A stretch of DNA of 39,833 nt, taken from the IMG/VR virus record IMGVR_UViG_3300032304_000280, positions 1-39,833 of that record; one strand, 5' to 3'. The notes beneath the pieces are model-generated. The model saw only the letters and a program-made list of their open reading frames with translations. It was not told the origin of the DNA and did not search any database. The position numbers and the translations under genes were made by a program. Positions within the stretch are counted from its first letter, which is position 1, and each line of letters begins with the position of its first letter. The stretch comes from a virus (lineage: Duplodnaviria; Caudoviricetes). This document shows positions 1 to 39,833 of this stretch, one piece after another.

Positions 1-123
1 GCATGGCATGCACGCAATGCCTGCCGCAGGCGCGTATACGACCCCTGCAAGCACCAAACGCAAGTACGCCATGCTTACCCCTGAGATTCGTAAATTCGAG
101 GCCCAGGAGGCTGAAATCAAGGC
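1..123. repeat. Terminal direct repeat (circular assembly overlap), copy 1
   Basis: Bases 1-123 are identical to 39711-39833 and the reading frame continues across the junction. Confidence 0.97.
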
Positions 124-3100
124 GGCGGCACCATCGGCTCAACTGCGTGCTGGCACTCTGACATTTGACGAGGCCGACGCAGAAGCAGTGGCCAAGTTTT
201 TCCCACCGTCTGCCCAGGCTCAAATCCTGCGCCAGCCAGAGCGCGGCGGGTTCGATCCGAAACGATTGACCACAATCCTCAACGAGAAGGCGGATATGTC
301 CACCTTCCTGCATGAGACTGCGCACTTTTTCTTAACGGTGTACGCCGACATGGCCTCGCGCCCAGACGCCACCGAACAGAACAAGCAAGACATGCAGACT
401 GTGCTCGATTGGTTTGGCATCAAAGACCTAGCTACCTGGAATGCGCTGTCGCTCGATGAGCAACGCAAGTACCACGAGCAATGGGCCTACAACTACGAGA
501 TCTACTTGTTTGAAGGCAAGGCTCCAAGCCTGCAAATGCAATCGATGTTTGAGCGTTTCAGCGCCTGGTTGCGCCGCGTTTACAAATCGATCCGCGACGA
601 ACTCAACCAGATCTATCGCCAAGAGAACGGCGAAGACTTGCCGATCCTGACCGGTGAAGTGCGTGAAGTCATGGACCGCATGCTGGCCAGCGAAGAGCAG
701 ATCAAACAATCTGAAGCAGTCAACAGCATGGTGCCCATGTACCAGACTCAGCAAGAGTCCGGCATGGACGACACCGAGTGGGCCGCGTACCAAGAAATGA
801 TGGCCGAGGCCACAGAGGCATCGATCACTGAGTTGACACAGGCAAGCCTGCGCCAATTGAAGTGGCTCGGCAATGCTCGTTCTCGCGTGCTCAAAGAGAT
901 GCAGGCCAAGACGGCTGACATCCGCAAAGGCGTGCGTGAAGAAGTGGCCGCAGAAGTTCAAGAAGATCGCGTTTATGTGGCCATGGAGTTCTTGAAGCGT
1001 GGCATCACCAAAGATGAAAACGGCCAAGACATCCAGGCATTAACTGGGCACAAACTCAAGATCGCCGATGTGAAGGCGCTCTACCCTGAAAGCAAAGAGT
1101 CGCTGACACCTGCACCTGACCTGACAAAATTGGGTTACGGCAAGTACGGCATGCTGGCTGAAGAAGGCCTGCCGCCTGACCTGGTGGCATCGATGTTCGG
1201 CTTTGACTCGGGAGATCAGTTGGTCCGCTCGTTGCTCGATGCCAAGCCAATCAAAGAAGAGATCGATGGTCGCACCGACGAGCGCATGCTTGCTGAATAC
1301 TCAGACCTATTGGACCCGGCCAGCATTGAGTTGGAAATCCAGAAGGCACTGCACAACGAAGCACGCGCCCGCTTTGTGGCCGTCGAGTTGCGCTACCTGG
1401 CCAAGGCAACACAGCCTGCGCGCCTAATGATTCAAGCCGCCAAGACTGCGGCCAAGTCAATCATTGGCAACAAGATCATCAGCGAGATCCGCCCGCGTGA
1501 CTACACCTTGGCAGAGGCTCGCGCATCCAAGGAAAGCATCAAGGCATCCAAAGCTGGAAAGACCACTGAGGCCGCAAAGGCCAAGCAAAACCAATTGCTC
1601 AACAACCAGTTGTCTCTCGAGGCAGTCAACGCACGCAAAGAAATCGACAAGGCCATTGACGGCTTTGCCAAGATTTTCAAAGGCGATGCCAAGATGGCCA
1701 AGAATCGCAACATCGATCTGGTCAACGCCGCACGATACATCCTTGGCCACTATGGCCTTGGCCCGCGTGATGTCGATCCTGCAAAGTTTGTCGAGCAACT
1801 CAAGTCATACAACCCAGACCTGTATGCAGACATCGAGCCAATCTTGCTCGAGTCCACCGCTGGCCCACGCAACTACAAAAAGTTGACGCTGAACGAATTC
1901 CGTCAAATGAAGGAAATCGTCGATGCGTTGTGGTACCAGTCCAAGCGTGAAAACGAAGTGATGATTGAAGGCAAAGCAGTTGCGCTTGATTCGATCATTG
2001 CAGAACTCAATGCGCGACTCGATGAGATTGGAGTGCCTGAAGAGGTTGCCGGTGAACGCATGGCGCCTGGCAAAAAAGAAAAAGCCATCCGCGCCCTGTA
2101 CAACGCCAAAGCATTGACCCGCAAGGTCGAGCACTGGGCTGATGCTACTGACGGAGCCGCTGGTCCTGGCCCATTCACCAATTACATCTGGCGTCCATTG
2201 CGTGCCGCGCTTGATCAATACCGCGTTGACCGCAACCGCTATGTCAAAGACTATGTCGACATGATCTCCAAGCTGGATCTGCCAGTGCAAAAGATCAATG
2301 CGCCAGAATTGAACTACACATTTGGCAACGAGAACGGCGGCATCGGCAAGGCAGAAGTGCTTGGTGCATTGATGCATATCGGCAACGACAGCAACATGAA
2401 GAAGCTGATTGCTGGTCGAGGCTGGGGCCAAATCAACGAAGACGGCTCTGTCGACACATCTCGATGGAATGCTTTTATGAACCGCATGATTGATGAAGGA
2501 GTGCTCACTAAAGCCGACTTTGATTTTGTGCAAGCAGTATGGGATCTAAATGAAGAACTCAAGCCTATGGCGCAAGAGGCGCATCGCGAGATCTTCGGCT
2601 ACTATTTCAAAGAAGTCGAGGCTCGCCCAGTGGTTACACCGTTTGGCACATACCGTGGTGGCTATGTTCCGGCGAAGACTGACCCGTTCATAGTTCGCGA
2701 CGCACAGCGTCAGGCCAAGATGGAAGAACTCGAGGCCGACTTCCGCAACTCGATGCCAAGCACTGGCGCAGGGTTCACGAAGTCTCGCGTCGAATACAAC
2801 AAGGCACTGTCGCTGGACATTCGTGTGATGGCCAAACACATCGATGATGTGATCCGCTTTGCACGCGTACAGCCAACGATCCGCGACACACTCAAGATCA
2901 TCCGCAAGCGTGATTTTGCAGACACCATCACCAGGATGGACCCGACCGTCATCGAGGACATGATCCTGCCGTGGCTCAATCGATCTGCTCGCCAGATCAC
3001 GAGCGAAGTAGGCATGAACCGTAGCATCGATACATTCTGGCGCGCAGTTCGCAACCGCACTGGTATTGGCATCATGTTTGCCAACATCACCAACGCGTTG

Positions 3101-4162
3101 CAACAGGTGACCGGCTTCTTCCCTGCCTTGCTCAAGGTCGAAGGCAAATACATGAAGTCTGCCCTGGCCGACTACATGAAGAGTCCAACGACGCAATCTG
3201 AGTTTGTTGCTGAATTGTCGCCGTTCATGGCTGACCGCATGAGCAATCAGATGGTCGAAGTGCAAGACATGATGAATGACTTGCTGATCAACCCAACCAA
3301 GTTTGACAAGATCCAGAAGTGGTCCAACAAGCATGGCTACTTCTTGCAACAGGCTTTTCAAAACTTTGTCGATGTGGTGACCTGGGTGGGCGCATACAAC
3401 CAGACAGTCGCAGAACTTGGCGCAGATGTTGATGAGAAGTCAGCAAGCAACGAAGCGATCAAGCGCGCCGACGCCGCTGTGCGTATGACCCAGTCAAGCC
3501 TACAACCTGAAGACTTGTCCGCGTTTGAGGTCGGTTCGCCGTTTTACAAGACGCTTATCCAGTTCTCTGGCTACTTCAACATGATCGCCAACTTGAATGC
3601 CAACGAGTACATCAAGATCTTCCGCGACCTTGGCTGGCGTGGCCAAAAGGGCAAACTGTTCATGACCTACTTGTTGGGCTTCGGCTTGCCAATGCTGGTC
3701 GCTGACGCCATCGTGCGCAGTCTTGGCGGAGGCTGGGACGACGAAGATGATGACGGCTACATGGATGTGTTCATGAGTTGGTTCTTTGGCTCACAACTGC
3801 GTGGTGCTGTCGCCCTGGTTCCGTTTGGTACTGCGGCCACCGTGCCATTCAACGCGTTCAACAACAAGCCCTATGATGACCGCATGACAACCAGCCCGTC
3901 TGTCTCAACGCTCGAGGGCGCGACGATTGGTGTGGTTAAGGCTGGCATCAATATCGCCGATTCAGACAAAGAGGTCACTGGCAAGAATGTTCGCGACATT
4001 CTGACCATGATCAGCCTGGTCACCGGCATCCCCGTAACCGTGCTTGGCAGACCGATTGGCTATGCCATCGATGTCGAGCGCGGCAAGATTAAACCCACCT
4101 CTGATGTCGACTACATTCGCGGGCTTGCCACTGGCAAAGCAAGCGAGTCGTCGAGACAGTAA
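2..4162 (+). CDS. C-terminal part of the giant internal virion/ejection polyvalent protein (continues from 34543 across the origin); zincin-like HExxH motif
   Basis: MHAMPAAG... is in frame with the end of the window; STFLHETAHFF at ~311-325 with downstream HEQWA; hydrophobic C-terminal segment; last position in the ejection-gene block. Confidence 0.85.
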   Translation, partial: HGMHAMPAAGAYTTPASTKRKYAMLTPEIRKFEAQEAEIKAAAPSAQLRAGTLTFDEADAEAVAKFFPPSAQAQILRQPERGGFDPKRLTTILNEKADMSTFLHETAHFFLTVYADMASRPDATEQNKQDMQTVLDWFGIKDLATWNALSLDEQRKYHEQWAYNYEIYLFEGKAPSLQMQSMFERFSAWLRRVYKSIRDELNQIYRQENGEDLPILTGEVREVMDRMLASEEQIKQSEAVNSMVPMYQTQQESGMDDTEWAAYQEMMAEATEASITELTQASLRQLKWLGNARSRVLKEMQAKTADIRKGVREEVAAEVQEDRVYVAMEFLKRGITKDENGQDIQALTGHKLKIADVKALYPESKESLTPAPDLTKLGYGKYGMLAEEGLPPDLVASMFGFDSGDQLVRSLLDAKPIKEEIDGRTDERMLAEYSDLLDPASIELEIQKALHNEARARFVAVELRYLAKATQPARLMIQAAKTAAKSIIGNKIISEIRPRDYTLAEARASKESIKASKAGKTTEAAKAKQNQLLNNQLSLEAVNARKEIDKAIDGFAKIFKGDAKMAKNRNIDLVNAARYILGHYGLGPRDVDPAKFVEQLKSYNPDLYADIEPILLESTAGPRNYKKLTLNEFRQMKEIVDALWYQSKRENEVMIEGKAVALDSIIAELNARLDEIGVPEEVAGERMAPGKKEKAIRALYNAKALTRKVEHWADATDGAAGPGPFTNYIWRPLRAALDQYRVDRNRYVKDYVDMISKLDLPVQKINAPELNYTFGNENGGIGKAEVLGALMHIGNDSNMKKLIAGRGWGQINEDGSVDTSRWNAFMNRMIDEGVLTKADFDFVQAVWDLNEELKPMAQEAHREIFGYYFKEVEARPVVTPFGTYRGGYVPAKTDPFIVRDAQRQAKMEELEADFRNSMPSTGAGFTKSRVEYNKALSLDIRVMAKHIDDVIRFARVQPTIRDTLKIIRKRDFADTITRMDPTVIEDMILPWLNRSARQITSEVGMNRSIDTFWRAVRNRTGIGIMFANITNALQQVTGFFPALLKVEGKYMKSALADYMKSPTTQSEFVAELSPFMADRMSNQMVEVQDMMNDLLINPTKFDKIQKWSNKHGYFLQQAFQNFVDVVTWVGAYNQTVAELGADVDEKSASNEAIKRADAAVRMTQSSLQPEDLSAFEVGSPFYKTLIQFSGYFNMIANLNANEYIKIFRDLGWRGQKGKLFMTYLLGFGLPMLVADAIVRSLGGGWDDEDDDGYMDVFMSWFFGSQLRGAVALVPFGTAATVPFNAFNNKPYDDRMTTSPSVSTLEGATIGVVKAGINIADSDKEVTGKNVRDILTMISLVTGIPVTVLGRPIGYAIDVERGKIKPTSDVDYIRGLATGKASESSRQ

Positions 4163-4222: not shown

Positions 4223-7192
4223 ATGACCATCAGTTCAAATAGCCGGAAAGCCGGTCCGTTTATAGGTAACGGAACAGCCGCGACTTTCCCCTTTACATTC
4301 AAGGTCTTCCAGGCTTCTGACCTGGAGGTGGTGAAACTCACCGTTGCAACCAATGTCGAAACGATTTTGGTGCTCAATACTGACTTCACCGCATCCGTCA
4401 ACGAAGACCAAAACTCCAGCCCTGGCGGCACAATCACGCTGTCTGCTGGCGCCCTGGCGACTGGCTACAACCTGGTCATCACCTCGGACATTGAAAACCT
4501 TCAACCAACCGATCTGACCAACCAGGGTGGCTTCTACCCTGAAGTTATCACCGACGCGCTGGACCGCGCAACGATTCAGATCCAGCAATTGCAAGAAGCT
4601 GTTGACCGTGCGGCCCTATTGCCAATCACCAGTAGCGCAGACGCCGCATCTCTTGTGGCCGACATCGTGCGCTTGGCTGACAGTGCAGACAACCTGGACA
4701 TCGACGCCAACAACATTGCATCGATCAACTCTGTCGCCGGTAGCATTTCCAATGTCAACACCGTTGCGACAAACATCAGCAATGTGAACACCGTCGCTGG
4801 CGTGTCGTCCAATGTGACTGTTGTCGGAACAAACATTGCATCAGTCAACACTGTTGCGGCTGACTTGAACGAGCCGGTGTCAGAGATTGAAACTGTCGCG
4901 GCCAACATCACGAATGTGAACACCGTCGGCACCAACATTGCCAATGTCAATATTGTTGGTGGAATCAGCGCCAATGTGACTACTGTTGCAGGCATCTCTG
5001 GTAGTGTTTCAACTGTTGCGACAAACAGCGCAAGCGTGGTGACTGCGGCGACAAACATTGCCAACATCAACACCGTGGCGTCCGATCTCAATGAGCCTGT
5101 CTCTGAGATTGACACAGTGGCCACGAACATCGCCAATGTGAACACAGTTGGCACGAATATCTCAAGCGTCAACACGACTGCCGCGAACAACACGAACATC
5201 ACGACTGTTGCAACCAACATCGCCAATGTGAACACAACTGCAACCAACATTGCAAATGTGAACTCGGTTGCAGGCAACTCGACCAACATCAATGCAGTGG
5301 CTGGTAACAGCACCAACATTAACGCTGTTGCGACGAACTCAACAAACATCAATACTGCCGCGACTAACATTGCCGCTATCACGACTGTTGCCAATGACTT
5401 GAACGAGCCGACCAGCGAGATCGATGTCGTTGCGAACAACATCGCAAGTGTGAACACTGTAGGCACAAACATCGCTGATGTGAGCACCGTTGCAGGCGTT
5501 GCAGGTAATGTGAACACGGTTGCAGGCATTGCACCTAATGTCACGACGGTGGCAGGAATCTCAGCAAATGTGACTACAGTTGCAGGCGTTGCCGCGAATG
5601 TCACTACTGTTGCAGGCATCTCGTCAAATGTCACGACTGTTGCTGGTGTCAGTGCAGATGTGACCACTGTTGCTGGTGTGGCCAGCGACATTCCAACTGT
5701 TGCAGACAATGTCTCCAACATCAACGATTACGCCAACACCTACCAGGGCGCCAAAGCCACTGCGCCAACACTGCGCAACAACGGTGGCGCATTGCTTGAA
5801 GGTGACATGTACTTCAACACTACCAGCGACACGATGTTTGTGTACGGCTCTGGTGGTTGGGTGCCTGCTGGCTCTAGCGTGAACGGAACAAGCCAACGCT
5901 ACAAGTATGTGGCCACCTCTGGCCAGACTTCATTCTCTGGCACTGATGCAAACGGCAACACGCTGACCTATGACGCAGGCTTCATCGATGTGTATTTGAA
6001 CGGCGTTCACCTGGACCCGACAGACTACACCGCGACGACCGGTACCAGCATCGTGCTTGGCTCTGGTGCGGCGCTGAACGATGAACTTTACATCGTTGCG
6101 TTTGGCACATTTAATGTTGCGTCATTCAACGGCTCTGGCCTTGACGACAATACAGTCAACATCAGCAAATTGAATGCAACTGGTACTCGTAGCAGTTCTA
6201 CATTTTTGGCTGGCGACAACACATTCAAAACTGTTGCCGTCACACCAACTGCAATTTCAGACCAAGCAAATACAAGCACTGGTTACATGATGATGCCTGT
6301 TGGCACTACTGCACAGCGCCCTGGAACACCAGCTTCTGGCATGTACAGAATGAATTCAACAACCGGATCTCCAGAGTGGTATGACAATTTATCTGGATCT
6401 TGGGTGCGATTTAATATTGGGTTGCCATATACGGTTGAGTATTTGGTGATTGCAGGAGGCGGTTCTGGTGATGGTGGTGGTGGCGGTGCTGGAGGCGTTC
6501 TTGCATCATCCATGGCCATTAATGGAGGCAGTATTGTTTCTGTTGTTGTCGGCGCCGGAGGTCCAGCTAATACCATAAACAACTTTGGCAATAACGGTTC
6601 AAATTCAACTTTAGCAAGTATTGCATTTTCTACTCTTACTGCAATTGGTGGTGGATGTGGCAGATATTCAGGGCAGGCTGGAGTTTCTGGTGGCTCTGGT
6701 GGTGGAGGCGCGGCACAATCATATGCTGGTGGTGCTGGAACATCAGGTCAAGGAAACGCTGGTGGCGCTGGTTCTCCTGGAACAATTGCCGCTGGTGGTG
6801 GTGGTGGCGCTGGCGCTGTTGGTTCTGTTGGTGTTAGTAACACCGGAGGAGCAGGAGGCGCAGGAACAAACACATATTCAACTTGGGCAACAGCAACAAG
6901 CACCGGTGCAAGCGGTTTTTACGCAGGCGGCGGGGGTGGCGGCGGTAATTCAGGTGGAGCCGGAGGATCTGGTGGAGGTGGCGCTGGAGCCAGCGGAAGT
7001 GCAACTTCAGGAACAGCTAACACTGGCGGCGGAGGTGGTGGTGTTTATGCATCTTATCCAGCAGGATCTGGCGGTTCCGGAATTGTAATTTTGCGATACT
7101 CAGGTGCTCAACGCGCTTCCGGTGGCACAGTGACATCGTCCGGCGGCTACACCTACCACACCTTCACTTCGTCCGGCACATTCACGGCATAA
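4223..7192 (+). CDS. Tail fibre protein (podovirus-type N-terminal anchor, 10-aa repeat stalk, Gly-rich C-terminal domain)
   Basis: N-terminal GNGTAATFPFTFKVF...ALDRATIQIQQL anchor; NIANVNTVA-type repeats; EYLVIAGGG...HTFTSSGTF Gly-rich domain; SD AGGAG. Confidence 0.88.
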   Translation: MTISSNSRKAGPFIGNGTAATFPFTFKVFQASDLEVVKLTVATNVETILVLNTDFTASVNEDQNSSPGGTITLSAGALATGYNLVITSDIENLQPTDLTNQGGFYPEVITDALDRATIQIQQLQEAVDRAALLPITSSADAASLVADIVRLADSADNLDIDANNIASINSVAGSISNVNTVATNISNVNTVAGVSSNVTVVGTNIASVNTVAADLNEPVSEIETVAANITNVNTVGTNIANVNIVGGISANVTTVAGISGSVSTVATNSASVVTAATNIANINTVASDLNEPVSEIDTVATNIANVNTVGTNISSVNTTAANNTNITTVATNIANVNTTATNIANVNSVAGNSTNINAVAGNSTNINAVATNSTNINTAATNIAAITTVANDLNEPTSEIDVVANNIASVNTVGTNIADVSTVAGVAGNVNTVAGIAPNVTTVAGISANVTTVAGVAANVTTVAGISSNVTTVAGVSADVTTVAGVASDIPTVADNVSNINDYANTYQGAKATAPTLRNNGGALLEGDMYFNTTSDTMFVYGSGGWVPAGSSVNGTSQRYKYVATSGQTSFSGTDANGNTLTYDAGFIDVYLNGVHLDPTDYTATTGTSIVLGSGAALNDELYIVAFGTFNVASFNGSGLDDNTVNISKLNATGTRSSSTFLAGDNTFKTVAVTPTAISDQANTSTGYMMMPVGTTAQRPGTPASGMYRMNSTTGSPEWYDNLSGSWVRFNIGLPYTVEYLVIAGGGSGDGGGGGAGGVLASSMAINGGSIVSVVVGAGGPANTINNFGNNGSNSTLASIAFSTLTAIGGGCGRYSGQAGVSGGSGGGGAAQSYAGGAGTSGQGNAGGAGSPGTIAAGGGGGAGAVGSVGVSNTGGAGGAGTNTYSTWATATSTGASGFYAGGGGGGGNSGGAGGSGGGGAGASGSATSGTANTGGGGGGVYASYPAGSGGSGIVILRYSGAQRASGGTVTSSGGYTYHTFTSSGTFTA
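4700..5730 (+). repeat. Degenerate 30-nt/10-aa coding repeats in the tail fibre stalk
   Basis: Repeated N(I/V)xxVNTV(A/G) and NVTTVAG(I/V) units with three DLNEP(V/T)SEI(E/D) interruptions; boundaries approximate. Confidence 0.85.
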
Positions 7193-10933: not shown

Positions 10934-11759
10934 TTGCCACCTCCGGTTGTGTGATCTCGCCAGTTGCCTGGTCAATGACATCGTCTGCCGGCTGGCCTAT
11001 AGAGGCCTTCAGGCGGCTTAAAGGGGCTTGCTGGGCCTCTGGCATTGGCGTGATGTTTACAGCCTCTCTGCGCTCGATCTGGACGAATCCTGATGCCTCG
11101 TTGTCATTGGCGATAACCTGGTCCAGATCAGCGCTTGATGGCAGGCGCTTGGCCATGCGACGAATCACAGTCTTCTTGGCCATCTCATCCCACCAGTCAG
11201 CCCATGGGCCAAACTTGCCTGCGCGGCTTGATGCTCGCACCTTCTCGACATCGGACACGCTCATCACCTCGCGGTAGATCGCGCCGTCTTTAGTCTTCGC
11301 CACAGCGTACACAGCGATTGGCTTGCCGCGATCCTCGCCCAGGAATGGACGGTGAACGATGTTCTCGTTGTCGCCCAGTTCGTATTCAAAGTGGTCCTTG
11401 TCATAGGCCACCTGCGCGCTGATGCTAGACAGTTCGCCAGAGTTTCGGATCTTTTTCAAGATGCCACCGACCATGGGCATGTACTGGACCTTCTTGCCTT
11501 CTTTGGTGTTGAAGATCACGGGCGCGGCTTCACGGCCATCCAACAGCAGACCATCTTGTGCGGCCTTCATGCATGCGCCCAGCAAACTGCGGCGATCGGC
11601 ACTCAGCAGTTCAGGGTTCATTTGCACTGCTGTCAGCGTGGTGCGAATGAACTTATCGACCGGGATCTGCGGAGGCAGTGCGGCCTGGAATTCTGGTTGC
11701 ATTTTCACCAGGGTGCCACGCATTGCTTCGATGGGGCTGAGTTCTGTTCCTGTAGTCAT
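10911..11759 (-). CDS. recT: RecT family ssDNA annealing protein
   Basis: S.LGACMKAAQDGL, YELG, GPW..WWDEMAKKTVIRR..KRLP motifs; next to a YqaJ exonuclease. Confidence 0.9.
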   Translation of the reverse strand: MTTGTELSPIEAMRGTLVKMQPEFQAALPPQIPVDKFIRTTLTAVQMNPELLSADRRSLLGACMKAAQDGLLLDGREAAPVIFNTKEGKKVQYMPMVGGILKKIRNSGELSSISAQVAYDKDHFEYELGDNENIVHRPFLGEDRGKPIAVYAVAKTKDGAIYREVMSVSDVEKVRASSRAGKFGPWADWWDEMAKKTVIRRMAKRLPSSADLDQVIANDNEASGFVQIERREAVNITPMPEAQQAPLSRLKASIGQPADDVIDQATGEITQPEVANVSATDA

Positions 11760-11983
11760 GCTTGTGCTCCTTCAAGTTTCAGTTGGTCTTGCTCGGGGAT
11801 CATGCTGGCCACCTCGAGTTTGATGCCGTTGCTCATAAGCGTGGCGACATCGATGGGCCTGGCGGCTTCGACCTGGTACATGCGGCCTGCGATATGGCGC
11901 AGTGCTTGTGCCTGGCTGATGGCTTGGACCAGGTAGGCTTTGTCATTGCTGACGACTTTGTAAATGCGTTGTTCGGTTGCCAT
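11756..11983 (-). CDS. Hypothetical protein
   Basis: RIYKV...LVQAISQAQALRH; SD AAGGAG; overlaps the recT start. Confidence 0.75.
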   Translation of the reverse strand: MATEQRIYKVVSNDKAYLVQAISQAQALRHIAGRMYQVEAARPIDVATLMSNGIKLEVASMIPEQDQLKLEGAQA

Positions 11984-11986
11984 GGT

Positions 11987-12937
11987 TTACTTCTCCTTCT
12001 TGGGATAAAAACGGAAACTGCGATAGCCCTCGGTTGCACCGATGACTGTGCCGACCATCTCAGGCGTGATGAGAGTGCCTGATCGGCCTTTGACTTGCCC
12101 CGTCGATAGCGAGCCAAAACTGGTGAGGACTTTGCTGGCGCGGCCAATGCGATCCAGGATCTCTGCGCGCTTTTGTTCCTTGATCTTTTCCAGATCGCTG
12201 GCCTCTCTGCGCACGAATTCAAACTGCTTGATCATGTCCTCGAGTTCGCGGTCAGCCTCGGCCACCAAGCCCTCATCTGCGCCGTTGCGCAACTGCTTGA
12301 TGATGAACTCGGCGTCGCGGGTGTAGTCGGCTGATGGCGCGGTGTTGGACTGCACACGATTCCAGAATTCTCCGGTGCGTTCGCGTATACTTTTACCAAT
12401 GTCCCGATCGCGATTTCGGAGGACTATCTTTTGCTCGTTGCCACCGACAAGCGCCACGATCGCGCACCAGTTGTAGTCGGCAATTTCCATTTGATGCTGG
12501 ACCTGTAACTCGATGTGCTCGGGCGCCTCGATGTTGCCGTTGCCATCGTCGATCCAATTTTTTTGGTACTGCACCCAGTCGACATTCTTGACCTCGAGAA
12601 TGCCTGGCCCATTGGCGCTTGACTTGATCTCAAAGTCAAAGCTGGACCCAATGCGTGCGGCCTGGTCGCGCATGTACACATTGAACTTGGCAATGCTCCA
12701 GCCCATGTCTTCAGCGGCGCCGTGCGCGATAGCTGATTCCAGGCGGTTGCCCCACTTCATGCGTTCATTGGGTTCGAACTTGACGGTCACGCCGTCGCGC
12801 TTTTGGTGAAACAGTTCGAACTCGGTGAGGTAAGGCGACAAGCCAAACAAGGCTGACACCTCGGTGCTGGTCACATCCTTGGCCCGCTCGGCAAGCCACT
12901 GCTTTTCGTTCTCAATTTCGATTCTTTGAATAGTCAT
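11987..12937 (-). CDS. YqaJ-like viral recombinase exonuclease (RecE-like partner of RecT)
   Basis: WLAER..VTSTEVSALFGLSPY, WGNRLE, SSFDF, ILEVKN, QVQHQM motifs. Confidence 0.88.
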   Translation of the reverse strand: MTIQRIEIENEKQWLAERAKDVTSTEVSALFGLSPYLTEFELFHQKRDGVTVKFEPNERMKWGNRLESAIAHGAAEDMGWSIAKFNVYMRDQAARIGSSFDFEIKSSANGPGILEVKNVDWVQYQKNWIDDGNGNIEAPEHIELQVQHQMEIADYNWCAIVALVGGNEQKIVLRNRDRDIGKSIRERTGEFWNRVQSNTAPSADYTRDAEFIIKQLRNGADEGLVAEADRELEDMIKQFEFVRREASDLEKIKEQKRAEILDRIGRASKVLTSFGSLSTGQVKGRSGTLITPEMVGTVIGATEGYRSFRFYPKKEK

Positions 12938-34542: not shown

Positions 34543-37500
34543 ATGATGCTAGTACCTGATGATGAATTTGATGCCGCCGCCGCACGAGTTGCTGGTGTAA
34601 AAAAATCGCCAAATCTCGATCAAGCCGCCGCAAATGTAGTTGACACACAGCGCACGCAATTGCGCACTAGCTTGTATGGCGCACTTGATGCAAATCCTGA
34701 TGAGGCCGCACGCGCAAAAAATCTATCAGACAAGTCTGGCATCCCAGTCGACATCGTTCAGCGCAATTACGCGCAAGTCAATCGCAATGTGCAACTCAAT
34801 GAGTTTGACGAAACACTCAAGCGCTCACCCTTGCTTGGCCAATGGTTAAGCAACACAAACAACGCAAAGATCTCGCACGACGATTCATCTAACCTTGCAG
34901 GCATCGAGCGTGAGTACGGCACGATCAAACCAATCGAGCGCTCATTCTTAGAAGAGATCACCGAACCATTCCAGCGTGGCTATGCGCGATTTAAGAAGGG
35001 CTTCTCGCTCATGCTTGAAGACACAGCCATGATGAAAGGTTTGCGCTCGCAACAGCAAGCGGCGGCTGAAGCGAATGGCATCACCTACAACCCAAAAGTT
35101 CAGCAGGCTGTAAACCTGGCCAACTATCAACGCAATGTTGAAAAGTTTCCAATGCCTCAAAACATTGAGCGCGGACTGCAAGAAATTGGTGAAGCAAAAA
35201 GTTTTGGCGAAGCATTCTCTGCAATCGTGTCTAACCCTGCCGCAGTGAGGGAAGTGATTTTTGAATCGATGGGTATTGGCGCTCCTGGCATTGCAGTGAC
35301 TGCCGCATCAGTGCCTATGGGTCCGTTGGCTGTGGCAACTGCCGCAGGCACAACCAGCTTCTTTACTGAATATGCATCAACGCTTGATGAAGTAATGTCA
35401 TCGAGCGGTGCTGACATGAAAGATCCAAACGCTGTCTACAAAGTTTTGACTGATGAAAAAGTCATGGCTGAAGCAAAAGACAAAGCCATGAAACGCGGCG
35501 TGCCAATTGCATTTTTTGATGCATTGACAGCCGGCATGGCAGGCAAGCTACTCAAAGGCGCAAGACCTACAGTGTTGAGCGTTGGTAGTCGTGTTGTTGG
35601 CGAAGGTGGTGTGCAAGCAGTAGGCGGCGCCGCAGGTGAAGCATCGGCACAAGCATTGACTGGTGAGTTCAAGCCAGGCGAGATCTTGCTCGAGGCGTTT
35701 GCTGAGATCCCAACAGCATTGGTTGAAGTGCCTGGCAACTATCGCGGCACAATGTTGCAGGCTGAGTCTGCCGAGCGCAGTGCCAATGCATTCGAGAAAG
35801 TCCAAGAGTTTTCACGCGCCAGCAAAGTGCGAGCACGCAGTGCAGAAACATTCAACGATTGGATTGGCCAAGTATCTCAAGAGACTGATGTCACTACGGT
35901 TTACATCAGCGGCGAAACGCTCAAACAATCTGGCTTGGCCGAACGAGTGGCAGAAGTATCGCCATCAGTGCGTGAGCAACTGGATACAGCCGTTGCAACA
36001 GGTGGCGACATTGCCATCCCTGTGACCGAGTACCAAACCAACATTGCACCGACTGAGTTCAGCACAGCGCTGATCGATGACTTGCGCATTGAAGGTGAGA
36101 TGATGACGCGCCGCGAGGCACGCGAGTTCATCGACAACCAGTCTGAAATCATGAAGAGTCAGATGGAGGCTAACGCCAAAGTCGAGATGACAAACAAAGA
36201 GTTTGTGAAGTCTGCGCGTGAAGTCGAAGGCTTGATGTTCCAGCAGATCAAAGCAACCAAGCAATACACCGACAACGCGGCCAGAATCAATGCGCAACTT
36301 GTGCGCGACTTTGTGGTGACTCAATCAGCGGCACTCAAAATCATGCCGACAGAGTTCTACAACCGCTACATGTACAAGGTCGAGCGAGCAGAAGGACAGC
36401 CTGGTGGCATGGCCCTGTTCAACCAAGACCAGCGCGTGATGATTGACAGCGTGCCATTCCGCAACTGGATTGGCTCGTCTATTTTTCAAGACGAAACAGG
36501 TGCACCGCAGACGCTGTACCACGGCACTGCCGACAATGTGACTGCATTTGATCCTGACCATCCAAACCGCAAAGACAGCGGCTGGCTTGGCACTGGTGTG
36601 TATCTGACTGACAGCGCTGACATGGCCGACATATACGCCATGCAAAAGCGTCGCACCGGCAATGCTGGTGAGAATGTCATGCCACTGTATGCGCGCCTCG
36701 AGAATCCTTACATGGCCACCATGGAAGACAAGGCACGCATTCGTGCTGGTGGCCGCGAAGCCGCTGATGCATTCACTGCCGAATTGCAGGCACAAGGCTA
36801 TGACGGCGTGATCTTGCAGGTTGCACCCGATGCACGCGAGATCGTGGTGTTCGACAACACAGCAGTCAAGTCGCCATTCAACGATGGCACATGGTCGCGT
36901 GAAAATGCCGACATCCTGCGCCAGGGCAATCAAGTATTGCAAACCGAATCACTGACCGACTCTGACGCAATCAACTCCGAAGAGGATGCCGAGGCCGACG
37001 ATGTGGCCGCGATTGAGGCACAGGCAGAAATTCCTGTGACTGTTGAAGACCAGGCCGAACTCAAGAACGCACTCGAGGTGGCAAAGAGCCAGGTGTGGAA
37101 CAAGGGCCGCGACCTCAAGATGGCGATCCAGACCGCAGTGCAACAAGCCGCGACTGAAGCCGGTGTCGATGTTTCTGTTCCATCACCGCAAACCACTGAC
37201 TACCTGGTGCGCGTGGGCCTCAAGGACGCACTGTTTGCGCTCGAGCAAAACCCGAATGCGATCGGTTGGTACGACGAGAAAACACGCCAGGCGCTGGCAG
37301 TCATGGCATTGGTGCACCCAGAGATCGCGACCAACGAAGACGCACGCTTTGCATTTACTTGGGCGCTGGCTGTCACATCGAACGGCTTGAAGGTCGACAA
37401 GAACTTTGAGTTGGCTGAGAAGGCCTACACCTACTACAAAGAAAACAAGGTCATGCCCACCAACATCAAAGGTGGACAAGCCCAGGGCGCGATCAATGAT

Positions 37501-39833
37501 TCGCTTGCCCTGTTCAACGAATTGGTCGGCGCCTGGGGCATCAAGAACCTGCGTCAGTTCATGCAGACCAACTTCACTGTGGGCGAGATCAGCGCGATCA
37601 GCAAAGACCTCAAGCCAGGCGGTGAGCACGCAGACACCATGGTCAAGGGCGCGGCCATCATTGGCCCCAAGATCGGCAACGGCTTTTTCTCCAACCTGTA
37701 TGGCGACTTTAGTTCCCTCACGATGGACCGCTGGCTGGTCCGCACCTGGGGCCGCTGGACCGGCACGCTCATTAAGAGCCTGCCCAAGCATGTTGAGACG
37801 GCCACCAACCGCCTGAACGCGGCAATCCGTAACGCGACACCAGAACAGGCCACACGCCTCTCTGAGGTCATCGGCATGGACATTGCCAACACCGAGGTCA
37901 ATCGCCTGGCTGACGCCATCCAGAAGGCCTCCATGGACCCCAAACTGCGCGAGCAGATGAACGAGTCCAAGGTCGGCGAAGAGATCCGCAAGGCCGGCAA
38001 CAGCCTGGCCAAGTACAACGATGGCCAAAAGGAAGCCCCGGCTGGCCCTCACGAGCGCACCTACATTCGCTCTGTCTTCTCCCAGATCCTGGCTGAGTTG
38101 CAGGCCGATCCAGCCTATGCCGACCTGACCATGGCCGATTTGCAGGCTGTGCTCTGGTACGCAGAAAAACGACTCTACGAATCAGCCAAAGACAATAATG
38201 TTGACCAAGAGTCAACAGACGGGTATAGTGATGAAGATGCCCCAGATTACGCCAACGCCGCCGCAGGTGTTGCGCGTAGCTTGGGTGTTTCCGATCGCAA
38301 GATCAATAACGCATTAAAGAAGGAGTCCAAAGATGAACGCGCAAGACGAGCACGACTACAGGATGAGCAAGCGCAGGTCGCTGGAGAGGAGCAAGCCGAA
38401 GCTGGAGGCTTTACTCAAAGAGAAAAACGGCTCTTTGCAGGCGCAGTCGCAACCAGAATTGCAAGATCCAATCGAAGCGGCGATCAAAAACAATCCTGGT
38501 CTTACACGGCAAAAAGCAGTGGAGATGGCGGAAAAGTTCGGGTTCTAAAAAGCCAACTTGTCACCTACTCGCAGGAATGGAAAGCAGGCGCAGGCCTGGC
38601 CCGTGTGTACCGAAACAACGGTATCACCGTGCCCAAGTTCTACGAATTGGAGCAAGGCAATGCACAGAATGCACAACGATTTTCTGAGGCCATCACAGCC
38701 AGCAAACAAGCCAGTGGCGACATGGGCGCGGCTGTCTTCGTCTACCCAGTCGAGGACTACCAAGGCATGCGCCTGTTCTTGTCTGAAGACGGCAAGTCCG
38801 GCGTCGCTGTCAAACCTGATGGCGACATCGTGTCGGTGTTCTCGCAAGCTGGCGCTGGCCGCTCTGTCATGGAGTTGGCCGTGGCCGCAGGTGGCACCAA
38901 GCTGGATGCATTCGAGACGATCCTGCCTGAGTTCTACGCCGCGCACGGATTTGTTGCGGCTTCGCGTTTACCCTGGGATGACACCCAGGCACCCGAAGGC
39001 TGGAACAAAGAAGCGTTTGCCGACTTTAACAATGGCGAGCCGAATGTCGTCTTCATGGCCTTGGACCAGTCGTACTACGGCTGGCACAAGATTAGCGATG
39101 GCAAGAAGTCCAAGACCTATGACGACGCCGTCGCCGACCAAAACCGCGCTGTAAAGCGCAACAAGAAACGAAAGGAAGATCATGGAAAACCCGCAGTCTT
39201 TGCCCAATCAGGAACCGGAGCAGGCGGCGTTCAACGCCTACGAGCAAGCGATCTCGATGTTGCCCAACGATATGGCACAGCCAGGGATGGAGCAACTTCA
39301 GTCCTTGGTGTCCACTATTCAAAACAACCTCGGAATAGTCTTGCCGGATTCGCCTACGGAACAGGCTTAAAAGGCGCAGAGGCTGGCCGTCTGGCTGGCG
39401 CTGACTCTCGCCTATCTAATCGCATCCACTTCTATGTGGACACCGGCAACGGCATTCGCCCAGAGGCTGGTGTTGGCGGCAATGTGCACGCCGTCTATCT
39501 GGACAACCTATACGACGCGGCGGCTGACCCGCTTGGCCTGCGCGCCCAGGCATCAGCCGGTGGCCGTGATGACCGTGGCCAATGGTTTAACGCGGTCGAG
39601 TCCGCAATCATCGATGCTGGGTTTGATGGTGTTTACATACCAGGCGCTGGTGGCGATCAAGGTGTGGCCGTGCTACTTGGCCCGCAACACAAGGGTGTAC
39701 CAGTCGAACAGCATGGCATGCACGCAATGCCTGCCGCAGGCGCGTATACGACCCCTGCAAGCACCAAACGCAAGTACGCCATGCTTACCCCTGAGATTCG
39801 TAAATTCGAGGCCCAGGAGGCTGAAATCAAGGC
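34543..39833 (+). CDS. N-terminal part of the giant (3,109 aa in total) ejection/polyvalent protein with ART-like, HhH-glycosylase-like, GNAT-like and second ART-like domains; continues to 4162
   Basis: ATG at 34543 after AGGA; no stop found in frame 1 to the window end; joins the 8..4162 ORF through the terminal overlap (5168+4162=9330 nt). Confidence 0.88.
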   Translation, partial: MMLVPDDEFDAAAARVAGVKKSPNLDQAAANVVDTQRTQLRTSLYGALDANPDEAARAKNLSDKSGIPVDIVQRNYAQVNRNVQLNEFDETLKRSPLLGQWLSNTNNAKISHDDSSNLAGIEREYGTIKPIERSFLEEITEPFQRGYARFKKGFSLMLEDTAMMKGLRSQQQAAAEANGITYNPKVQQAVNLANYQRNVEKFPMPQNIERGLQEIGEAKSFGEAFSAIVSNPAAVREVIFESMGIGAPGIAVTAASVPMGPLAVATAAGTTSFFTEYASTLDEVMSSSGADMKDPNAVYKVLTDEKVMAEAKDKAMKRGVPIAFFDALTAGMAGKLLKGARPTVLSVGSRVVGEGGVQAVGGAAGEASAQALTGEFKPGEILLEAFAEIPTALVEVPGNYRGTMLQAESAERSANAFEKVQEFSRASKVRARSAETFNDWIGQVSQETDVTTVYISGETLKQSGLAERVAEVSPSVREQLDTAVATGGDIAIPVTEYQTNIAPTEFSTALIDDLRIEGEMMTRREAREFIDNQSEIMKSQMEANAKVEMTNKEFVKSAREVEGLMFQQIKATKQYTDNAARINAQLVRDFVVTQSAALKIMPTEFYNRYMYKVERAEGQPGGMALFNQDQRVMIDSVPFRNWIGSSIFQDETGAPQTLYHGTADNVTAFDPDHPNRKDSGWLGTGVYLTDSADMADIYAMQKRRTGNAGENVMPLYARLENPYMATMEDKARIRAGGREAADAFTAELQAQGYDGVILQVAPDAREIVVFDNTAVKSPFNDGTWSRENADILRQGNQVLQTESLTDSDAINSEEDAEADDVAAIEAQAEIPVTVEDQAELKNALEVAKSQVWNKGRDLKMAIQTAVQQAATEAGVDVSVPSPQTTDYLVRVGLKDALFALEQNPNAIGWYDEKTRQALAVMALVHPEIATNEDARFAFTWALAVTSNGLKVDKNFELAEKAYTYYKENKVMPTNIKGGQAQGAINDSLALFNELVGAWGIKNLRQFMQTNFTVGEISAISKDLKPGGEHADTMVKGAAIIGPKIGNGFFSNLYGDFSSLTMDRWLVRTWGRWTGTLIKSLPKHVETATNRLNAAIRNATPEQATRLSEVIGMDIANTEVNRLADAIQKASMDPKLREQMNESKVGEEIRKAGNSLAKYNDGQKEAPAGPHERTYIRSVFSQILAELQADPAYADLTMADLQAVLWYAEKRLYESAKDNNVDQESTDGYSDEDAPDYANAAAGVARSLGVSDRKINNALKKESKDERARRARLQDEQAQVAGEEQAEAGGFTQREKRLFAGAVATRIARSNRSGDQKQSWSYTAKSSGDGGKVRVLKSQLVTYSQEWKAGAGLARVYRNNGITVPKFYELEQGNAQNAQRFSEAITASKQASGDMGAAVFVYPVEDYQGMRLFLSEDGKSGVAVKPDGDIVSVFSQAGAGRSVMELAVAAGGTKLDAFETILPEFYAAHGFVAASRLPWDDTQAPEGWNKEAFADFNNGEPNVVFMALDQSYYGWHKISDGKKSKTYDDAVADQNRAVKRNKKRKEDHGKPAVFAQSGTGAGGVQRLRASDLDVAQRYGTARDGATSVLGVHYSKQPRNSLAGFAYGTGLKGAEAGRLAGADSRLSNRIHFYVDTGNGIRPEAGVGGNVHAVYLDNLYDAAADPLGLRAQASAGGRDDRGQWFNAVESAIIDAGFDGVYIPGAGGDQGVAVLLGPQHKGVPVEQHGMHAMPAAGAYTTPASTKRKYAMLTPEIRKFEAQEAEIK
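38333..38548 (+). CDS. Nested +1-frame gene (71 aa) inside the giant gene
   Basis: SD AAGGAG at 38320-38325 with 7-nt spacing; protein-like C-terminus DPIEAAIKNNPGLTRQKAVEMAEKFGF; atypical codons in the host frame. Confidence 0.6.
   Translation: MNAQDEHDYRMSKRRSLERSKPKLEALLKEKNGSLQAQSQPELQDPIEAAIKNNPGLTRQKAVEMAEKFGF
39182..39370 (+). CDS. Nested +1-frame gene (62 aa, acidic) inside the giant gene
   Basis: SD AAGGA at 39172-39176; amphipathic helical acidic product; atypical codons in the host frame. Confidence 0.5.
   Translation: MENPQSLPNQEPEQAAFNAYEQAISMLPNDMAQPGMEQLQSLVSTIQNNLGIVLPDSPTEQA
39711..39833. repeat. Terminal direct repeat (circular assembly overlap), copy 2
   Basis: Identical to bases 1-123. 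Confidence 0.97.

Follow-up and report, generated by a model that had tools for sequence, protein, structure and literature searches.

The 39,833-nucleotide virus record IMGVR_UViG_3300032304_000280 (Duplodnaviria; Caudoviricetes), hereafter the window, carries a giant polyvalent virion protein gene, within which two small open reading frames (ORFs), ORF1 and ORF2, are read in the +1 frame behind internal Shine-Dalgarno (SD) sites (Table 1). Judged by their sequence, ORF1 and ORF2 are real conserved small-protein genes with predicted products, and each is linked to the domain downstream of it, ORF1 to a GNAT-fold domain and ORF2 to an ART-like domain. We propose, with confidence a little above even, that the two products are cognate inhibitors, which would keep the virion-packaged enzymes quiet during assembly and would later serve as orphan immunity.

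A sequence-only reading of the window had reported both ORFs with their SD sites, and the coordinates, the SD motifs and the +1 phase relative to the giant frame from 34543 were all reproduced. Among the 1,763 codons scanned, ORF1 and ORF2 start at the only +1-frame ATGs preceded by an AAGGA, AGGAG or GGAGG motif. The A-rich lead-in was likewise present (A made up 47% of the 30 nucleotides upstream of ORF1 and 53% for ORF2), as were main-frame codons over the two ORFs that are rare elsewhere in the gene: AGA (4/15 arginine codons inside vs 2/83 outside), CGA (5/15 vs 9/83), CTA (3/8 vs 6/103) and GGA (10/19 glycine codons vs 4/127), and GC content at main-frame third positions was 0.35 inside and 0.61 outside. 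The product of ORF1 appears to consist of two conserved motifs with a variable Ser/Gln/Pro-rich linker between them. ORF2 does lack Lys and Arg in the window, as had been stated, and this property is not conserved across relatives.

The dual-coding claim stood up when 32 distinct close relatives, the window among them, were aligned by codon: the two deepest troughs of third-position variation over the whole gene are ORF1 and ORF2. Main-frame synonymous variation (pS) was 0.049 over ORF1 and 0.065 over ORF2, and elsewhere in the giant gene it never fell below 0.120 in 1,411 overlapping 62-codon segments (median 0.247). ORF1 was intact from ATG to stop in 26/26 spanning sequences (six partial or gapped sequences excluded), and ORF2 was open in 31/31, of which 30 were intact from ATG to stop and one extends beyond the usual stop position. 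Start, SD, stop and open frame are thus conserved and the host frame is synonymously suppressed, as in nested (overprinted) genes. The ratio of nonsynonymous to synonymous variation (pN/pS) in the +1 frame, which is confounded in dual-coding DNA, was 0.61 for ORF1 and 0.68 for ORF2 vs 1.6-3.1 in tested regions outside. Just 5' of the ORF1 SD, positions 38191-38310 had a pS of 0.091, the lowest 33-codon value outside both ORFs, and may hold a regulatory element. The available RNA runs were at contig level and had small shares of the region (0.18 or less).

It is very improbable that the two ORFs are mere shadows of a conserved main frame. Such shadows do occur, since +1 frames are often open here, for example as a 164-codon ORF inside the GNAT domain; however, this ORF, which served as a negative control, showed no synonymous suppression (pS 0.178, +1 pN/pS 3.1), unlike ORF1 and ORF2. 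For ORF1 a shadow is refuted by this contrast and by the persistence of its motif in copies whose main frame is riddled with stops (below). No family for either product was present in Pfam, PHROG or PADLOC, and ESM Atlas returned only viral clusters without names (0.88-0.90, low recognition value).

The sequence-only reading had asked whether the small genes travel with a given domain, and for ORF1 the C-terminal motif does so with the downstream GNAT. In a set of 57 fused GNAT homologues (non-redundant at <85% identity), all found via the enzyme, 47 had a +1 ORF, 45-120 codons long, that stops where the domain begins; 41 of the ORFs had an SD and 40 ended in G-x-stop. The corresponding values for 1,309 control anchors within those genes were 12.9%, 4.0% and 0.2%. 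Nine representatives found via the small protein were left out of the 57, and three solo or broken GNATs were counted apart. In the +2 frame, an ORF was present at the GNAT start in 0/66. In the opposite direction, the GNAT follows right after the motif, in the -1 frame, in 18/20 viral motif loci; in the remaining two, one contig ends at that point and the other locus gave no score. The profile hidden Markov model of the C-terminal motif gave no match of at least 12 bits away from a GNAT in six frames of loci L001-L245. The pairing persists whatever the upstream domain, including a MuF capsid fusion in Microbacterium phage Barnstormer. Two annotated phages with the same upstream domain, another downstream domain and no GNAT had a nested ORF that lacks the ORF1 C-terminal module, which rules out this module as the partner of the upstream domain.

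Several individual loci show variants of the ORF1 arrangement. In the cultured phage Barnstormer, gp4 (OQ190478.1) holds an unannotated +1 ORF before the GNAT, inside an annotated minor capsid protein gene. In a Terriglobales assembly (L152, about 2090-2444), two tandem nested ORFs, each with a terminal ORF1 motif, precede one GNAT. In L050 and L051 (about 4970-5005), a main-frame stop lies just 5' of the GNAT and the nested ORF reads beyond its usual stop, which may be a natural uncoupling or a decaying cassette.

The C-terminal motif spans 269 clusters at 50% identity, mostly proteins of 50-130 amino acids with the motif at the C-terminus, and the ten motif-cluster proteins that were looked up had no name or were called hypothetical. 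The query with the ORF1 family matched no plasmid record, and DC33 was the sole phage record. This breadth bears on the explanation that nested translation itself matters, by regulating translation of the giant gene or stability of its mRNA, or by feeding re-initiation or frameshifting that yields separate domains. The strong, conserved SD sites, an ORF1 stop placed precisely where the GNAT domain begins and the constraint reaching slightly 5' of the SD would fit such a role; yet the motif is kept at the protein level over the 269 clusters and in free-standing genes, and the window has no main-frame start codon beside the ORF1 stop, so we hold this explanation to be improbable.

ORF2 travels with the downstream ART-like domain. 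In 11/12 distinct distant ART-like homologues a +1 ORF lies over the domain start, with the ORF2 motif, by eye, clear in five and weak in three, and a GNAT was upstream in just one of the 12. A partnership of ORF2 with the GNAT was ruled out, as GNATs before other domains had no ORF2 or had other nested families. The evidence is thinner than for ORF1: the search for ORF2 homologues yielded 8 close relatives only, and the C-terminal half of ORF2, which overlaps conserved enzyme sequence, may be largely passive. When ORF2 was scored against the 'DLQNLP.DP' variant that takes its place in L280, the result was no better than for decoys, so the homology of this variant to ORF2 is positional only.

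The window covers a complete podophage genome of 39.8 kb whose ends overlap exactly over 123 nucleotides (1-123 = 39711-39833), i.e., a circular assembly. The giant ORF had been described as uninterrupted, and it is indeed open from 34543; its extent was corrected, as the gene wraps round the ends of the window. The 1,386-codon frame at 2-4162 is its C-terminal part, and the gene runs from 34543 through the end to 4162; the protein is about 3,120 amino acids long in relatives. The protein of the window shares 86.8% identity with one from Limnohabitans phage DC33 (PQ492659.1), in whose record none of the nested genes is annotated. That record is classed under Inoviridae, yet the region has podophage-type capsid and tail genes like those of the window. 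Portal, capsid and internal virion protein genes lie upstream of the giant gene, and the directly preceding genes include an internal-virion-protein gene and one with an endolysin-family match.

The giant protein combines several disparate effector and LPD domains (LPD22 and ART-PolyVal above Pfam cut-offs, a GNAT fold and a weak ART-like fold). Given this late virion-gene setting together with LPD22 and ART-PolyVal, it qualifies as a polyvalent protein as described in PMC5512222. From the genomic context and by analogy with phi24B gp47, we infer that it is packaged and injected with the DNA. The domain labels of the sequence-only reading fared unevenly. The GNAT fold was recovered by structure model and Foldseek, where the best matches were GNATs (best E 4e-4, TM score about 0.4-0.5), and a solo relative is an annotated acetyltransferase in a Streptomyces phage. 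The second ART fold was weakly recovered (6kyf at E 2e-3, MbcT at E 9e-3, then other ART-fold chains, none below 1e-3), and 2/13 members of its set had a weak RES match. The HhH-glycosylase label found no match in any tool: the domain had no Pfam or PDB sequence match, the label comes from a motif resemblance, and the lead in ESM Atlas was DUF7178, on 11% of one cluster.

Table 1. Features of the giant gene and its nested ORFs in the window
Feature	Coordinates	Strand	Details
Giant polyvalent virion protein gene, 5' part	34543..39833	+	Continues through the terminal overlap; frame ends at 4162
LPD22 domain, main frame	34669..34914	+	Pfam PF18834, E 8.5e-21
First ART domain, ART-PolyVal, main frame	36490..36879	+	Pfam PF18760, E 2.8e-19
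Conserved domain; labelled HhH-glycosylase-like in the sequence-only reading	37180..38220	+	Kept in alignment A10
SD of nested ORF1, AAGGAG	38320..38325	+	7 nt to ATG; AAGGA(G) in 26/26 close relatives
Nested ORF1, 71 amino acids, +1 frame	38333..38548	+	N-terminal AQxxHD motif and C-terminal module
ORF1 C-terminal module, DPI..A...PGLTR..A..MA..FGF-stop	38462..38545	+	Tracks the downstream GNAT
GNAT-fold acetyltransferase-like domain, main frame	38557..39168	+	AlphaFold pLDDT 94.4; Foldseek
SD of nested ORF2, AAGGA	39172..39176	+	5 nt to ATG; AAGGA(G) in 31/31 close relatives
Nested ORF2, 62 amino acids, +1 frame	39182..39370	+	Motif in the N-terminal half conserved (PEQAAFNAYEQAIS); travels with the downstream ART-like domain
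Second ART-like domain, main frame	39226..39720	+	Partly overlapped by ORF2; AlphaFold pLDDT 86.2

The ORF1 module also exists outside giant genes. The motif identified 29 metagenome loci, of which 4 were nested before a GNAT, 2 were fragments of the nested type and 23 had no GNAT match. Stops interrupt the -1 frame in 19/21 tested free-standing copies (two partial matches excluded) vs 0/16 nested copies, and pN/pS of the small frame in the free-standing copies was 0.27, an apparent conservation that is inflated because the copies were found by matching the small protein. The neighbours of some free-standing copies are integrase, primase, Mob, Zorya, Panacea or restriction(-like) genes. In L247-L249 a second nested-type module lies directly 5' of the free-standing copy, so that two families stand side by side, as they also do in L167 (JBNJLE010000009.1, 2152-3374), a locus of a Pseudomonadota assembly. 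In L167, the GNAT and the next enzyme domain are broken and two small ORFs are intact, one of which joins modules of two junctions; Panacea and type I restriction genes lie nearby. These enzyme-free copies count, if indirectly, toward a predicted inhibitor role. In L270 (1-1508) and L247 (318-1202), ZorA/ZorB genes and an HNH type IV restriction-like gene adjoin free-standing copies of the ORF1 family.

The small proteins could also be independent effectors (anti-defence proteins, superinfection exclusion proteins or host modulators) that track a domain through block inheritance, which we consider unlikely. The enzyme-free copies, which persist under purifying selection, several of them beside integrase, primase or Mob genes, agree with this explanation, as does the fact that some GNATs manage without the small gene. 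An independent gene would, however, be expected to move, and the motif in phages, from Microbacterium phages to melainabacterial and acidobacterial assemblies, is found solely right before the GNAT; moreover, where another domain occupies the same position, the partner is a different one.

The nested peptides appear to be modular. Their N-terminal parts recur with the type of the upstream domain and their C-terminal parts with that of the downstream domain. The motif of a nested ORF that follows one upstream type and precedes the ART-like domain turned up again in four database proteins, joined there to the GNAT module and scoring higher than any decoy, and modules of two other junctions recurred likewise (six matches, and two to three matches); several database proteins are concatenated modules from different junctions. 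The link of the ORF1 N-terminal motif to the upstream domain was marginal, at 14.9 bits in one phage vs 12.5 for the best decoy and below the decoys in a second phage. ORF1 is probably a two-part peptide, with a C-terminal module for the GNAT and, more weakly, an N-terminal motif for the upstream domain, and each nested peptide may be composed of two modules, one per neighbouring domain. As linkage alone could yield such tracking, we treat this modularity as a lead. It is tentatively conceivable, and in our estimate rather doubtful, that each cassette brings +1 inhibitor modules in its flanks, that the two-part peptide silences the enzymes on both sides, and that bacteria and their mobile elements capture such modules, drop the enzymes and join the modules into a new class of anti-phage defence that disarms injected effectors.

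Other junctions of related giant genes hold unannotated +1 nested ORFs with a strong SD, at 11672-11860, 12347-12553 and 12557-12742 of MW202722.1 and at 11549-11737 and 12218-12460 of MW202640.1, and nested families of these types recur across phages sharing the neighbouring domains. Behind another type of upstream domain, the nested ORF in L148 (about 2760-2900) has a different N-terminal module (LPLTRQTYL-type).

Starting from what is shown, namely the nested genes, the constraint on them and the link of each to the domain after it, we propose the following sequence for the inhibitor role. Ribosomes would start at the internal SD sites of the late mRNA that also encodes the giant protein, and during the synthesis and packaging of that protein the resulting small proteins would bind the adjacent GNAT-fold and ART-like domains and hold them inactive. 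The giant protein would then be packaged and delivered to the next host, and the inhibitors would stay behind, so that the enzymes would be released on injection. In shuffling, each enzyme cassette would take along its small partner gene, the -1 frame of which would act as the linker between domains, and the small gene would be kept without the enzyme, as orphan immunity, in cells or on mobile elements. The linker may be a by-product of the small gene rather than the reverse. The +1 phase is that of a small gene relative to a downstream gene when stop and start codons overlap, and this match makes it plausible that the arrangement originated in a captured two-gene cassette, the other frame of the small gene becoming the linker; no intact free two-gene operon was found.

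Folding or packaging chaperones for the adjacent domains, which would secure encapsidation and ejection competence and leave catalysis unblocked, would produce pairing data identical to those of the inhibitor model. A giant LPD protein of phage phi24B was detected in virions and is a proposed ejection protein, according to the available account (bioRxiv 10.64898/2026.04.10.717836), so that it would have to be packaged in compact or unfolded form. Partners exist, however, for some enzyme domains only, the C-terminal half of the gene held no additional trough in the constraint scan, and a pure chaperone would not outlast its decayed client. We rate chaperones as unlikely, a little more so than independent effectors.

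Several observations weigh against the inhibitor reading. The first ART domain has no adjoining nested SD-ATG gene. The +1 pN/pS of ORF1 and ORF2 in close relatives is only modestly below one, with 0.91-0.92 in the C-terminal halves. By the rule applied, ten of the 57 fused GNATs had no such ORF, and the motif was absent from the GNATs that are solo or broken, so the enzyme can at times do without the partner. Tracking of a small gene with a domain is also expected from plain linkage of adjacent DNA, and the link of the ORF1 N-terminal motif to its upstream domain was marginal (above). Besides the inflated conservation noted above, the free-standing copies make up, by eye, about nine related groups. 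L167 is the sole case that shows a direction and belongs to one metagenome-assembled genome, and among sampled genomes of its phylum the orphan gene occurred in 1/401, that one being L167's own.

Polyvalent proteins occur widely and pose the question of how host-modifying enzymes can be made at a late stage of infection at no cost to phage production. On the inhibitor reading, a nested partner would mark which domains are likely to be harmful. The nested genes are invisible to standard annotation, though one module spans hundreds of protein clusters. If the free-standing copies protect cells, they would represent a defence mechanism against injected phage enzymes and would explain a set of orphan hypothetical proteins; if the proposal is true, it would also reveal a natural path, taken repeatedly, along which overlapping genes form and come apart again.

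Type II toxin-antitoxin systems with GNAT toxins (AtaRT, TacAT, KacAT) have a small partner gene directly 5' of the GNAT gene, in the phase given by overlapping stop and start codons. Here, by contrast, the GNAT is a fused domain without a start of its own and ORF1 matches no antitoxin family, and no toxins of this type were among the top structural matches listed for the GNAT domain. The steady linkage of a small gene to one enzyme domain is shared with toxin-immunity and type II toxin-antitoxin systems (47/57 GNATs, 18/20 viral motif loci and 11/12 ART-like homologues), whereas the small genes of the window are nested instead of separate and adjacent and belong to no known immunity or antitoxin family in Pfam, PHROG or PADLOC.

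For phage polyvalent proteins, Iyer et al. (2017, PMC5512222) described GNAT domains, typically next to ART domains, and predicted that they are packaged and enter the cell at infection. The protein of the window agrees with these polyvalent proteins in being a giant late-region protein with LPD22 and ART-PolyVal; the main text of that paper, its supplement aside, contains neither 'overlap' nor 'small protein' and, as far as the account goes, describes no nested or inhibitor genes.

Polymorphic toxin-immunity systems, including their polyimmunity loci and proteins, were described by Zhang et al. (2012, PMC3482391). As far as these accounts go, they and the MuF phage toxins (PMC12226406) likewise have exchangeable enzyme cassettes, each with a small partner, and in the former the partner genes also occur without toxins, near recombinases and as tandem fusions. 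What we observed (23/29 loci without a GNAT, families side by side and mobility or defence genes near some copies) would correspond to putative polyimmunity or orphan immunity, and the concatenated nested modules in database proteins resemble polyimmunity proteins. The immunity genes of those systems, however, are separate genes beside a C-terminal toxin, and the genes described here are out of frame, at internal junctions and mostly 5' of the domain.

Rpn intragenic antitoxins (PMC10400984) share with ORF1 and ORF2 a small gene inside the enzyme gene, an internal start and extra free copies. RpnS, however, is in frame, equals the C-terminus of the toxin and acts in bacterial defence, whereas both ORFs here are phage genes in the +1 frame, unrelated in sequence to the enzyme and several per gene. 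Out-of-frame nested genes whose product binds the host-frame protein are described for lambda Rz/Rz1 and Synechocystis slr0489/slr1079/slr1082 (bioRxiv 10.64898/2025.12.20.695498), where Slr0489L alone slowed growth, an effect that the authors liken to toxin-antitoxin action. According to that account these are membrane or envelope proteins with a single nested gene, in contrast to the domain-specific partners proposed here, which would be shuffled with their cassettes inside a virion protein of several enzymes. The open-access literature searched (supplements of the cited papers aside) yielded no account of genes nested in those for polyvalent proteins. Relative to all these systems, what is new here is the two-way test of domain-specific pairing together with the enzyme-free copies.

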